In this document: one piece after another, positions 3,589 through 10,502 of the stretch
Layout: the number at the start of each line of letters is the position of its first letter
How positions within the stretch are numbered: position 1 is the first letter of the stretch
The notes under the pieces: generated by a model
The model's database searches: none
The model's input: only the letters and a program-made list of their open reading frames with translations
What the model was told of the DNA's origin: nothing
Translations under genes and position numbers: made by a program
From: Escherichia coli
GTDB taxonomy: Bacteria; Pseudomonadota; Gammaproteobacteria; Enterobacterales; Enterobacteriaceae
DNA: 64,000 bases
NCBI RefSeq assembly: GCF_022846255.1
Contig: NZ_AP025682.1
Strand: one strand, 5' to 3'

Positions 3589-3733
3589 ACTGGTTATTCC
3601 TTCAAGGGGTGAGTTGTTCTTAAGGAAAGCATAAAAAAAACATGCATACAACAATCAGAACGGTTCTGTCTGCTTGCTTTTAATACCATACCAAACGTAC
3701 CATTGAGACACTTGTTTGCACAGAGGATGGCCC

Positions 3734-4612
3734 ATGTTCACGGGAAGTATTGTCGCGATTGTTACTCCGATGGATGAAAAAGGTAATGTCTGTCGGGCTA
3801 GCTTGAAAAAACTGATTGATTATCATGTCGCCAGCGGTACTTCGGCGATCGTTTCTGTTGGCACCACTGGCGAGTCCGCTACCTTAAATCATGACGAACA
3901 TGCTGATGTGGTGATGATGACGCTGGAGCTGGCTGACGGGCGCATTCCGGTGATTGCCGGGACCGGCGCTAACGCTACTGCGGAAGCCATTAGCCTGACG
4001 CAGCGCTTCAATGACAGTGGTATCGTCGGCTGCCTGACGGTAACCCCTTACTACAATCGTCCGTCGCAAGAAGGTTTGTATCAGCATTTCAAAGCCATCG
4101 CTGAACATACTGACCTGCCGCAAATTCTGTATAATGTGCCGTCCCGTACTGGCTGCGATCTGCTCCCGGAAACGGTGGGCCGTCTGGCGAAAGTAAAAAA
4201 TATTATCGGAATCAAAGAGGCAACAGGGAACTTAACGCGTGTAAACCAGATCAAAGAGCTGGTTTCAGATGATTTTGTTCTGCTGAGCGGCGATGATGCG
4301 AGCGCGCTGGACTTCATGCAATTAGGCGGTCATGGGGTTATTTCCGTTACGGCTAACGTCGCAGCGCGTGATATGGCCCAGATGTGCAAACTGGCAGCAG
4401 AAGGGCATTTTGCCGAGGCACGCGTTATTAATCAGCGTCTGATGCCATTACACAACAAACTATTTGTCGAACCCAATCCAATCCCGGTGAAATGGGCATG
4501 TAAGGAACTGGGTCTTGTGGCGACCGATACGCTGCGCCTGCCAATGACACCAATCACCGACAGTGGTCGTGAGACGGTCAGAGCGGCGCTTAAGCATGCC
4601 GGTTTGCTGTAA
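3734..4612 (+). CDS. dapA: 4-hydroxy-tetrahydrodipicolinate synthase DapA (292 aa)
   Basis: N-terminus [20 protein letters not shown]-track ORF begins 6 codons upstream at 3716. Confidence 0.95.
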
Positions 4613-4628
4613 AGTTTAGGGAGATTTG

Positions 4629-5663
4629 ATGGCTTACTCTGTTCAAAAGTCGCGCCTGGCAAAGGTTGCGGGTGTTTCGCTTGTTTTATTACTCGCTGCC
4701 TGTAGTTCTGACTCACGCTATAAGCGTCAGGTCAGTGGTGATGAAGCCTACCTGGAAGCGGCACCGCTTGCGGAGCTTCATGCCCCGGCTGGAATGATTT
4801 TGCCGGTGACCTCCGGTGATTATGCAATCCCGGTGACCAACGGTAGTGGTGCTGTCGGTAAGGCGCTGGACATTCGTCCACCAGCCCAGCCGTTGGCACT
4901 GGTTTCTGGCGCGCGTACCCAGTTCACGGGCGATACCGCTTCATTGCTGGTGGAAAATGGTCGTGGCAATACTCTGTGGCCGCAGGTGGTTAGCGTGCTG
5001 CAGGCGAAAAACTACACCATCACCCAACGTGATGATGCTGGTCAGACACTGACCACCGATTGGGTACAATGGAACCGTCTGGACGAAGACGAGCAGTATC
5101 GTGGTCGTTATCAAATCTCTGTTAAGCCGCAGGGTTATCAGCAGGCGGTTACGGTTAAACTGCTGAACCTGGAACAGGCGGGCAAACCGGTCGCAGACGC
5201 GGCTTCCATGCAGCGTTACAGCACGGAGATGATGAACGTTATTTCCGCCGGTCTGGATAAATCTGCCACTGACGCCGCGAACGCTGCGCAAAATCGTGCC
5301 TCCACCACTATGGACGTACAAAGTGCAGCTGATGACACCGGTTTACCAATGCTGGTCGTACGCGGGCCGTTCAATGTGGTTTGGCAACGTCTGCCAGCTG
5401 CGCTGGAAAAAGTGGGCATGAAAGTGACTGACAGCACCCGTTCGCAGGGCAACATGGCCGTAACTTATAAGCCGCTGTCTGACAGCGAATGGCACGAACT
5501 GGGCGCGAGCGATCCAGGTCTGGCATCCGGTGACTATAAACTGCAGGTTGGCGATTTAGATAACCGCAGCAGCCTACAGTTCATCGATCCGAAAGGTCAT
5601 ACTCTGACTCAGAGTCAGAACGACGCGCTGGTAGCTGTCTTCCAGGCTGCGTTTAGCAAGTAA
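4629..5663 (+). CDS. bamC: outer membrane protein assembly factor BamC (NlpB) lipoprotein (344 aa)
   Basis: Signal peptide with lipobox LLLAAC; full-length match to recalled BamC. Confidence 0.95.
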
Positions 5664-5670
5664 AAATACA

Positions 5671-5696
5671 GGGCTGGAGTCATCCGGCCCTTTTTT
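5671..5696 (+). terminator. intrinsic terminator after bamC
   Basis: gggctggagtcatccggccc hairpin followed by tttttt. Confidence 0.6.
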
Positions 5697-5706
5697 CTGA
5701 TATGAT

Positions 5707-5722
5707 ACGCAAACGTGTGCGT
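5707..5722. promoter_or_regulatory. PurR operator (pur box) upstream of purC
   Basis: acgcaaacgtgtgcgt is 15/16 to the PurR box consensus ACGCAAACGTTTGCGT. Confidence 0.6.
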
Positions 5723-5764
5723 CGACAGAAAAACGCGATTTTAGCGGTAATTCGCACGAAATTT

Positions 5765-5820
5765 GTCTGTCGGACGTAGGTCGGATAAGGCGTTTACGCC
5801 GCATCCGACAAAACATCCGG
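5765..5820. repeat. REP (repetitive extragenic palindromic) element in purC leader
   Basis: gtaggtcggataaggcgtttacgccgcatccgacaa matches the canonical E. coli REP pattern. Confidence 0.75.
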
Positions 5821-5875
5821 CACACCAGACAGCAAAAGATTTTAAAACGTTAATTCACACCCAGGAGTGATAAAG

Positions 5876-6589
5876 ATGCAAAAGCAAGCTGAGTTGTATC
5901 GTGGTAAAGCGAAAACCGTATACAGCACGGAAAACCCGGACCTGTTGGTGCTCGAATTCCGCAATGATACGTCAGCAGGGGATGGCGCGCGCATTGAGCA
6001 GTTTGATCGCAAAGGTATGGTGAACAACAAGTTCAACTACTTCATTATGAGCAAACTGGCTGAAGCGGGTATCCCGACTCAAATGGAGCGTCTGCTCTCC
6101 GATACCGAATGTCTGGTGAAAAAGCTGGATATGGTGCCGGTTGAGTGTGTCGTGCGTAACCGTGCTGCTGGCTCTCTGGTGAAACGTCTTGGAATCGAAG
6201 AAGGTATTGAGCTGAACCCGCCACTGTTCGATCTGTTCCTGAAAAACGACGCCATGCACGATCCGATGGTCAACGAATCTTACTGCGAAACCTTTGGCTG
6301 GGTGAGCAAAGAGAATCTGGCGCGTATGAAAGAGCTGACCTACAAAGCGAACGACGTGCTGAAAAAACTGTTCGATGATGCAGGTCTGATTCTGGTCGAC
6401 TTCAAGCTGGAGTTTGGTCTGTACAAAGGCGAAGTGGTTCTGGGCGATGAGTTCTCCCCGGACGGCAGCCGCCTGTGGGACAAAGAAACGCTGGAGAAAA
6501 TGGATAAAGACCGTTTCCGCCAGAGCCTCGGTGGCCTGATCGAAGCCTATGAAGCCGTTGCCCGCCGCCTGGGTGTACAGCTGGACTGA
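5876..6589 (+). CDS. purC: phosphoribosylaminoimidazole-succinocarboxamide synthase PurC (237 aa)
   Basis: N-terminus [34 protein letters not shown]-track ORF begins 3 codons upstream. Confidence 0.95.
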
Positions 6590-9723: not shown

Positions 9724-10422
9724 ATGAAACATGACCATTTTGTTGTTCAAAGCCCGGATAAACCAGCACAACAGTTGTTACTGCTTTTCCACGGTGTCGG
9801 GGATAACCCGGTGGCAATGGGGGAAATAGGTAGCTGGTTTGCGCCGCTGTTTCCTGATGCGCTGGTGGTGAGTGTCGGTGGCGCGGAGCCGAGCGGTAAT
9901 CCGGCGGGGCGTCAGTGGTTTTCGGTGCAGGGTATTACGGAAGATAATCGCCAGGCGCGTGTGAATGCCATCATGCCGACGTTTATTGAGACGGTGCGCT
10001 ACTGGCAGAAACAAAGCGGAGTAGGGGCTAATGCCACGGCGCTAATCGGTTTCTCACAAGGCGCGATTATGGCGCTGGAGAGCATTAAAGCCGAACCGGG
10101 CCTTGCTTCGCGCGTCATTGCCTTCAACGGACGCTACGCGAGCCTGCCGGAAACCGCGTCTACAGCCACAACAATTCACTTGATTCATGGCGGTGAAGAT
10201 CCGGTTATCGATCTGGCGCATGCGGTTGCGGCGCAGGAAGCGTTAATCAGTGCCGGTGGCGATGTGACGCTGGATATCGTGGAGGATTTAGGCCATGCGA
10301 TCGACAATCGCAGTATGCAATTAGCCCTGGATCACTTGCGTTATACCATTCCGAAACATTATTTCGACGAAGCGCTAAGCGGCGGTAAGCCTGGCGATGA
10401 TGATGTGATTGAAATGATGTAA
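9724..10422 (+). CDS. ypfH: YpfH esterase, phospholipase/carboxylesterase family (232 aa)
   Basis: Serine hydrolase motif GFSQGA; start at MKHDHFVVQSPDK within ORF-track ORF 9700..10422. Confidence 0.85.
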   Translation: MKHDHFVVQSPDKPAQQLLLLFHGVGDNPVAMGEIGSWFAPLFPDALVVSVGGAEPSGNPAGRQWFSVQGITEDNRQARVNAIMPTFIETVRYWQKQSGVGANATALIGFSQGAIMALESIKAEPGLASRVIAFNGRYASLPETASTATTIHLIHGGEDPVIDLAHAVAAQEALISAGGDVTLDIVEDLGHAIDNRSMQLALDHLRYTIPKHYFDEALSGGKPGDDDVIEMM

Positions 10423-10427
10423 TAATA

Positions 10428-10498
10428 GCCGGGTAGGTCTGATAAGACTGTATCAGGCATCATGGCCGGATGCGGCGTTAACGCCTTATCCGGCCACT
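10428..10498. repeat. tandem REP units (BIME-like) between ypfH and ypfN
   Basis: gggtaggtctgataagactgtatcaggcatc followed by ggccggatgcggcgttaacgccttatccggcc. Confidence 0.75.
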
Positions 10499-10502
10499 TA
10501 GC

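Follow-up and report, generated by a model that had tools for sequence, protein, structure and literature searches.

RESULTS

Genes and sequence features of the bamC-purC region

The stretch of DNA that we analyzed (64 kb in full; hereafter the window) carries, by its list of open reading frames (ORFs), dapA (3716-4612), bamC, and purC in that order, all on the plus strand. Their counterparts in Escherichia coli K-12 MG1655 are b2478, b2477, and b2476, and the spacer between bamC and purC measures 212 bp there. In the window, the purC ATG is at 5876-5878. A 401-nt query spanning the purC leader matched 5,425 of 5,426 complete E. coli genomes at 95 to 100% identity, with the features there annotated as bamC and purC. 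Relative to K-12, the window showed 7 differences over 261 aligned nucleotides, one of them in the loop of the bamC terminator. The window is E. coli chromosome that lies near K-12, though it is not K-12 itself, so data gathered in K-12 transfer directly to it. The features of the region are collected in Table 1.

Table 1. Features of the bamC-purC region, in window coordinates
Feature	Position	Strand	Basis or remark
bamC CDS (outer membrane protein assembly factor BamC)	4629..5663	+	ORF; RefSeq annotation; K-12 b2477, 1035 nt
bamC intrinsic terminator (9-bp stem, 4-nt loop, T6 run)	5670..5696	+	Terminator scan; K-12 Term-seq
purC promoter, extended -10 (TGaTATGAT)	5698..5706	+	Sequence reading relative to mapped transcription start
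PurR operator (pur box) ACGCAAACGTGTGCGT	5707..5722	.	15/16 to consensus; ChIP-chip site in K-12; spans -6 to +10
purC transcription start (A6/A7 of pur box; 5' UTR 163-164 nt)	5712..5713	+	Two K-12 transcription start sets
Leader copy A GACAGAAAAACGCGATTTTAGCGGTAATTCGCAC	5724..5757	+	Promoter-proximal copy of ancestral leader segment
Insert left arm	5758..5775	+	Locus-specific; partly complementary to right arm and to starts of copies A and B
REP (GTAG tag and imperfect palindrome; 7-bp and 4-bp stems, TTTA loop)	5776..5809	+	+64 to +97 of purC mRNA
Insert right arm	5810..5827	+	Locus-specific; pairs with left arm in minimum-free-energy fold
Leader copy B GACAGCAAAAGATTTTAAAACGTTAATTCACAC	5828..5860	+	ATG-proximal copy of ancestral leader segment
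Shine-Dalgarno AGGAG	5863..5867	+	8 nt before ATG; sequence reading
purC CDS (SAICAR synthetase, 237 aa)	5876..6589	+	ORF; RefSeq; Pfam SAICAR_synt

Downstream of bamC, a terminator scan returned the hairpin AGGGCTGGAGTCATCCGGCCCT at 5670-5691, whose stem contains 6 GC pairs, followed by TTTTTT up to position 5696. The primary 3' end of bamC in K-12 Term-seq data is at 2597798/2597799 (Adams 2021 supplement), which corresponds to window positions 5696/5695, the last T's of the run. A GC-rich hairpin, a U-run, and a K-12 RNA 3' end mapped inside that run, the marks of an intrinsic terminator, are all found together here, and the terminator is unchanged between E. coli and Escherichia albertii.

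An 83-aa ORF on the minus strand (5574-5825) overlaps the terminator, the operator, and the REP element and was taken as spurious. On the far side of purC, the E. coli contigs L088-L091 carry a two-gene insertion (2068-2693) between purC and ypfJ that both the window and K-12 lack; it encodes a 75-aa protein and a 132-aa PIN-domain protein, resembling a VapBC-type toxin-antitoxin pair.

An extended -10 promoter with its start site inside the pur box

Two K-12 data sets locate the start of the purC transcript. The supplement of Kim 2012 (PMC3415461) lists a single minus-strand start site for purC, at 2595803; the 5' UTR is given as 163 nt, and the upstream sequence ends in ...CTGATATGATACGCAAA. 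The start corresponds to window position 5713, the seventh base of the pur box (5876 - 5713 = 163). Independent differential RNA-seq (Romero 2014, PMC4681348) places a reverse-strand start at 2595804, one base from the first. The next reverse-strand start downstream in that list, 2595462, lies inside the purC coding sequence, and none is listed between the pur box and the purC ATG. Because neither data set lists a start from box to ATG, we rejected, for E. coli, a candidate second promoter close to the GTTAAT of copy B. The portion of the Kim 2012 files consulted listed no purC start for Klebsiella pneumoniae, and the Shigella M90T, ROSE, and Salmonella ChIP-exo supplements contained no purC entry.

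Relative to the start at 5713, T5698/G5699 occupy -15/-14 and TATGAT (5701-5706) occupies -12 to -7. We recognized no -35 element: the match to TTGACA is at most 3/6 by reading, and the position falls inside the bamC terminator hairpin. A two-hexamer consensus promoter scan of 5500-6000 returned no match because the purC promoter is without a -35. Judged by motif and start position, the promoter reads as an extended -10 promoter of the sigma-70 type. The extended -10 is identical in Escherichia, Citrobacter, Pseudocitrobacter, and RIT691. Close behind the box, many genera show a good -10-like hexamer (TAGAAT, TAAAAT, GATAAT, or CATAAT) where E. coli and Citrobacter have CAGAAA, and some of these genera are without the upstream TGATATGAT. 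The promoter may have shifted around a fixed operator between genera.

The pur box ACGCAAACGTGTGCGT departs from the palindromic consensus ACGCAAACGTTTGCGT at a single position and retains the central CpG (C5714-G5715). It was the only match in the 64 kb, both at no more than one mismatch and at no more than three, and none of 100 shuffles of the window gave a match at no more than one mismatch. The preliminary description had placed a near-palindromic pur box directly after the bamC terminator and about 150 bp before the purC ATG. By our measurement, 10 nt separate the box from the end of the T-run and 153 nt separate it from the ATG, and the 15/16 agreement with the consensus bears out the near-palindrome.

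In K-12 the purC site bound by PurR in ChIP-chip experiments is ACGCACACGTTTGCGT, the reverse complement of the box, with a log2 enrichment of 2.08 with adenine and 1.52 without (Cho 2011, PMC3159470). Occupancy is therefore taken from the identical site in K-12. The purC start lies within the box, which covers -6 to +10, as expected of an operator position. Counting either orientation, about 25 Enterobacteriaceae loci, which represent more than 10 genera, have this identical 16-mer in front of purC.

PurR is a dimeric repressor of the LacI family whose corepressor is hypoxanthine or guanine. RNA polymerase would start at the extended -10 promoter that abuts the bamC terminator, with A5712/5713 inside the box as the first base of the transcript. 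When purines are plentiful, the PurR dimer with hypoxanthine or guanine would sit on the box from -6 to +10 and block polymerase binding or open-complex formation, leaving purC repressed. From the position of the operator and the established behavior of PurR and other LacI-family proteins, we infer that repression would work by steric exclusion. The K-12 purC promoter-operator and the PurR regulon were reportedly described in 1990 by He et al. and by Tiedeman et al.

Several variations on the operator came to light among the loci compared. In Enterobacter sp. BIGb0383 (L021) and Enterobacter sp. ENT03 (L064), the box reads ACGCACACGTTTGCGT and lies about 69 to 100 nt upstream of purC; this is the exact reverse complement of the ACGCAAACGTGTGCGT of all other genera, so that the single asymmetric position has switched sides. 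No pur box (at no more than three mismatches) was found within 450 nt upstream of purC in L019, L023, L028, L027, L035, or L038. In place of the box, these Enterobacterales have a short GC-rich hairpin directly before the Shine-Dalgarno sequence (e.g., CGATTGC-GCAA-GCGATCG or GGCCGC-GCA-GCGGTC), and Siccibacter and Shimwellia have both this hairpin and a pur box. Within the E. coli leader, a candidate second PurR site centered on AAAACGTTAAT in copy B was rejected, matching the consensus at 7/16 by reading.

A REP element in the purC leader

As the preliminary description had it, a REP lies between the pur box and the purC ATG; it is a single GTAG-tagged element with the sequence GTAGGTCGGATAAGGCGTTTACGCCGCATCCGAC. 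The GTAG occupies 5776-5779, and the 14-nt arms (5780-5793 and 5796-5809) are 86% complementary; the hairpin is present in both the minimum-free-energy and the centroid folds. The element is extragenic: it lies in the spacer of 212 bp that separates bamC from purC, at a distance of 113 nt from the bamC stop codon. Elsewhere in the window, the 24-nt core of the REP is found again on the minus strand (10468-10491). In megablast searches, a query that contains the core matched each E. coli genome at a median of 6 places, with a maximum of 15, and the flanks of the core were single-copy. An imperfect palindrome of about 35 nt, a terminal GTAG, dispersed copies, and an extragenic site thus come together, as in other REPs. 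Compared with Rfam, the element scored 40.3 bits for naRNA4, short of the gathering score of 59.5; we take that family to be derived from REP325.

Because transcription starts upstream of the element, at 5712/5713, the REP is transcribed in the purC leader, at +64 to +97. The preliminary description had put it in the 5' UTR and had named a start site downstream of the REP as the result that would take it out of the mRNA; both published K-12 maps instead start inside the pur box.

The GTAG-tagged REP class is described in PMC3733652. Like other GTAG-tagged E. coli REPs, the purC element combines its tag with an imperfect palindrome of about 34 nt and is multi-copy, extragenic, and transcribed; it differs in lying downstream of a mapped promoter, in a 5' UTR, and not in a 3' UTR or an intercistronic operon spacer. 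It is also a single unit and not a BIME. The ends of its stem read TCGGA/TCCGA, against CCGGA/TCCGG in the second copy in the window. That second REP, GGCCGGATAAGGCGTTAACGCCGCATCCGGCC (within 10420-10500, minus strand), begins a few nucleotides after a stop codon and is followed by a different palindromic unit, GCCTGATACAGTCTTATCAGACCTAC; the two look like a BIME-like pair in the usual 3' position.

REPs typically lie between co-oriented genes, and the purC element, 113 nt beyond the bamC stop between two genes on the same strand, is in such a place. It could serve bamC, as a back-up terminator or a barrier to 3' exonucleases for read-through from dapA-bamC, a function that REPs between co-oriented genes usually have in 3' UTRs, and stabilizer and terminator roles have been described for REPs in tandem gene pairs (bioRxiv 10.64898/2026.03.23.713779). 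Against this, bamC transcripts have their primary 3' end at the intrinsic terminator, which the REP follows at a distance of 80 nt, and the portion of the Term-seq tables consulted lists no 3' end for bamC at the REP. Genera without the REP moreover keep the same terminator and spacer design. We consider a role for the REP in bamC expression very unlikely. Because the terminator and the promoter separate bamC from the REP, we assign the element to the leader of the downstream gene.

A 103-bp insertion lengthened the leader in Escherichia

To compare purC leaders across species, we used a protein-guided scan of one genome per species, which yielded 80 purC loci. The distance from box to ATG is 168 to 169 nt in E. 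coli and E. albertii. It is 65 to 68 nt in Citrobacter (four loci), Enterobacter, Leclercia, Pseudocitrobacter, Phytobacter, and others, and the short spacing holds in most other box-bearing Enterobacteriaceae genera, with a few independently longer leaders. The bamC-purC spacer likewise measures 211 to 212 bp in Escherichia versus 106 to 119 bp in most other Enterobacteriaceae. The short leaders of Citrobacter, Enterobacter, and Leclercia, which are of the ancestral type, share with E. coli the bamC terminator design and an identical pur box and differ in having no REP and a single copy of the leader segment. Citrobacter resembles E. coli further in its extended -10 and its Shine-Dalgarno-proximal sequence: by alignment and side-by-side reading it has the terminator design, TGATATGAT, the box, and CGTTAATTCACACCCAGGAG...ATG, and is without about 103 bp in between. 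The GGAG of the Shine-Dalgarno sequence was conserved in all Enterobacteriaceae leaders inspected.

The additional sequence in Escherichia has a recognizable structure. Copies A and B aligned to each other with a local score of 26, the maximum in 2,000 shuffles being 22. Copy A aligned to the 5' part of the single Citrobacter leader with a score of 40, which none of 2,000 shuffles reached, and copy B aligned to the 3' part of that leader with a score likewise reached in none of 2,000 shuffles; the 3' part of copy B is identical to Citrobacter at 27 of 28 positions. Between the copies lies a 70-nt imperfect palindrome made up of an 18-nt arm, the 34-nt REP, and a second 18-nt arm. Each arm occurs at one place per genome (for the left arm, in a search of 28 Gb of E. 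coli sequence). The whole 70-nt insert was therefore rejected as a mobile unit; because both arms are single-copy in E. coli, the repetitive part is the REP core only.

The full leader is present in 5,425 of the 5,426 complete E. coli genomes, and all of 10 further contigs encoding an identical PurC have the 212-bp spacer. By parsimony, the Escherichia lineage probably acquired a 103-bp block by insertion before the divergence of E. coli from E. albertii. This block, the 70-nt REP palindrome together with a second leader copy of about 34 nt, would have entered an ancestral leader of about 60 nt between its operator-proximal and ATG-proximal parts. The insertion would have spared the promoter and operator on one side and, on the other, the translation-initiation region formed by copy B and the Shine-Dalgarno sequence. 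The purC leader is 163 nt long only because of this insertion.

REPs and BIMEs are bound by gyrase and Pol I, and REP-associated tyrosine transposases recognize GTAG-tagged sequences of the REP type. The purC REP carries this tag and is of the kind that these transposases recognize, which would suit an element acting at the level of DNA, as a site for gyrase or a nucleoid protein, a supercoiling buffer, or a transposase substrate, with transcription through it irrelevant. Such a role leaves the leader duplication around the insert unexplained, and the element is a single REP and not a BIME pair; we regard it as extremely improbable.

Other sequences have also entered or resemble parts of this spacer. 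The spacers of 218 to 229 bp in Cedecea neteri (L022), Klebsiella sp. BIGb0407 (L027), and Brenneria roseae (L038) share an element of about 125 nt with the pattern …AATAATTCGAG(C/T)TGCAGGAAGGCGG…CCAACGCACATGCA(G/A)CTTGAAGTATGACGGGTA…, which we take to be ERIC/IRU-like. On that assumption, a different family of repeats entered the same spacer independently in these genera. Independent expansions of the spacer are also seen in Kluyvera (173 bp) and Enterobacter sp. BIGb0383 (141 bp). A ChIP study in Salmonella Typhimurium (PMC10268841) reported, in front of purC, a peak for MarA/RamA together with a weak marbox, GAAATAGCGGTTAAA, which resembles GATTTTAGCGGTAATT in E. coli copy A; two metagenome pattern scans built on this marbox gave zero matches.

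Substitution pattern and folding of the leader

We compared E. coli with E. albertii segment by segment, taking four-fold-degenerate sites as the reference. The PurC proteins of the two loci are 100% identical. No differences were found in the terminator, promoter, and operator (0/59; fraction 0) or in copy B and the Shine-Dalgarno sequence (0/55; fraction 0). The copy A region (5723-5757) differed at 7 of 35 positions (0.20), the left arm at 4 of 18 (0.22), the right arm at 5 of 17 (0.29), and the REP at 3 of 34 (0.09). Four-fold-degenerate sites differed at 19 of 107 positions in purC (0.18) and at 60 of 165 in bamC (0.36). At a rate of 0.18, each of the two invariant blocks has a probability of about 1e-5, and both are evidently strongly constrained. 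The divergence of copy A and of the arms is close to the synonymous value, and these segments look neutral. Divergence of the REP was not significantly slower than the synonymous rate of purC (P = 0.12).

These rates are to be read with the history of the region in mind. Over window positions 4626-6589, four-fold divergence from E. coli SCPM-O-B-8794 (L003) was 0.36 in bamC and 0.045 in purC, a contrast suggesting that a recombination boundary lies within or close to the bamC-purC spacer of the SCPM-O-B-8794 lineage. Recombination has made the region a mosaic, and its local neutral rate is therefore uncertain.

The principal alternative to a tolerated insertion is that the REP hairpin is a functional post-transcriptional element of purC, a layer of control found only in Escherichia and modest in effect. 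It could cause leaky attenuation or pausing of transcription, form a barrier that affects how the leader decays, or let TTTGTCTGTCG (5762-5772) switch its pairing between copies A and B. In favor of this, the purC mRNA contains the REP, and the insert has become fixed in E. coli. The predicted fold of the leader is more stable than those of its shuffles (z = -2.8) and includes an extended hairpin of 25 pairs. In the leader folded from the transcription start, the REP is predicted to form an autonomous hairpin. Both attenuation and exonuclease blocking have been reported for REPs, which a preprint describes as leaky terminators and exonuclease barriers whose action depends on context (bioRxiv 10.64898/2026.03.23.713779).

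Other properties of the hairpin speak against such a function. Across seven distinct Escherichia sequences, 93% of the extended hairpin was paired, and no pair had changed on both sides, so that no covariation was seen; the helix formed by the two arms is broken in E. albertii and in strain SCPM-O-B-8794, and the rate of change in the flanks of the REP is close to that of synonymous sites. Two C-to-T changes in a single E. coli lineage result in G-U pairs on the mRNA strand; these are too few for an interpretation. No U-run follows the REP hairpin on the plus strand, and the portion of the K-12 Term-seq tables of Adams 2021 that was consulted assigned no 3' end to the purC leader. A search of Rfam gave no match to a cis-regulatory family in the leader. 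Over the positions from -15 to +6 relative to the AUG, the leader with the insert has a mean predicted unpaired probability of 0.49. Three deletions made in silico give 0.39 to 0.52, and the native leader of Citrobacter gives 0.39; predicted accessibility of the ribosome-binding site (RBS) is thus unchanged by the insert.

The pairing switch rests on an inverted repeat of 10/11, CGACAGAAAAA (5723-5733) with TTTGTCTGTCG (5762-5772). The left arm can pair alternatively with the start of copy A (5723-5733) or with the start of copy B (5827-5832), the latter pairing enclosing the REP. The repeat may be fortuitous, because by our estimate about 0.25 such repeats are expected by chance in a 250-nt region.

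A regulatory RNA element in a 5' UTR would be recognized by covariation, a premature 3' end, or RBS sequestration. We saw neither covariation nor predicted sequestration, and the Term-seq tables consulted list no premature 3' end in the leader. The preliminary description had raised the possibility that the REP influences the stability or translation of purC mRNA; our computations lend that idea no support, and we found no experiment on the purC-leader REP in the literature. We consider a functional purC element of this kind unlikely.

Given these results, we favor as probable the following reading: purC is transcribed from an extended -10 promoter that PurR represses, and its leader has gained a REP that is specific to the lineage, is tolerated, and affects purC expression little or not at all. 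From the substitution patterns and the predicted folding, we infer that the insert would be nearly neutral. Counting against a mere passenger are the fixation of the insert in essentially all E. coli and its retention in E. albertii, as well as the somewhat lower divergence of the REP core relative to its flanks (3/34). Fixation or lower divergence could reflect selection, and equally could reflect gene conversion among REP copies or small numbers.

DISCUSSION

The purC operator, promoter, long leader, and leader REP are essentially already known from K-12, and the locus is an ordinary one. Terminator, extended -10, pur box, and start region have essentially the same sequence as the K-12 purC promoter-operator, apart from the one difference in the terminator loop, and the ChIP-chip site and the 163-nt UTR are the same; strain-level substitutions relative to the K-12 leader fall in copy A, the left arm, and the REP. 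The positions of the elements, the transcription start, PurR occupancy in K-12, and the restriction of the insert to one lineage are published or observed. Somewhat new are only the Escherichia-specific timing of the insertion and the flanking duplication of about 34 nt of leader.

REPs can act as stabilizers and attenuators in tandem gene pairs, of which malE-malF is one. The purC REP resembles the malE-malF element and REP325 of yjdM-yjdN (bioRxiv 10.64898/2026.03.23.713779) in being a transcribed hairpin between two co-oriented genes. It differs from both in that an efficient intrinsic terminator and an independent, repressor-controlled promoter precede it. Unlike the REPs of such tandem pairs, it had no associated 3' ends at purC in the part of the Term-seq tables consulted.

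We attach little weight to the locus as a discovery, as its features are textbook ones for K-12 and REPs are the commonest repeats of E. coli. That the Escherichia-specific 103-bp expansion is non-neutral and provides lineage-specific post-transcriptional control of purC, through attenuation, leader decay, or a pairing switch, seems to us quite improbable; if true, a REP would here have been put to use in a 5' UTR, which is rare in nature, and the footprint of its insertion and of the duplication could still be traced. The locus has modest value as a clean natural experiment on what follows when a REP lands in a 5' UTR. Between E. coli and Citrobacter, the promoter, the operator, and the translation-initiation region are essentially the same, and the main difference is the 103-bp REP-bearing insertion, of whose origin the flanking duplication of about 34 nt is an unusually clear footprint.
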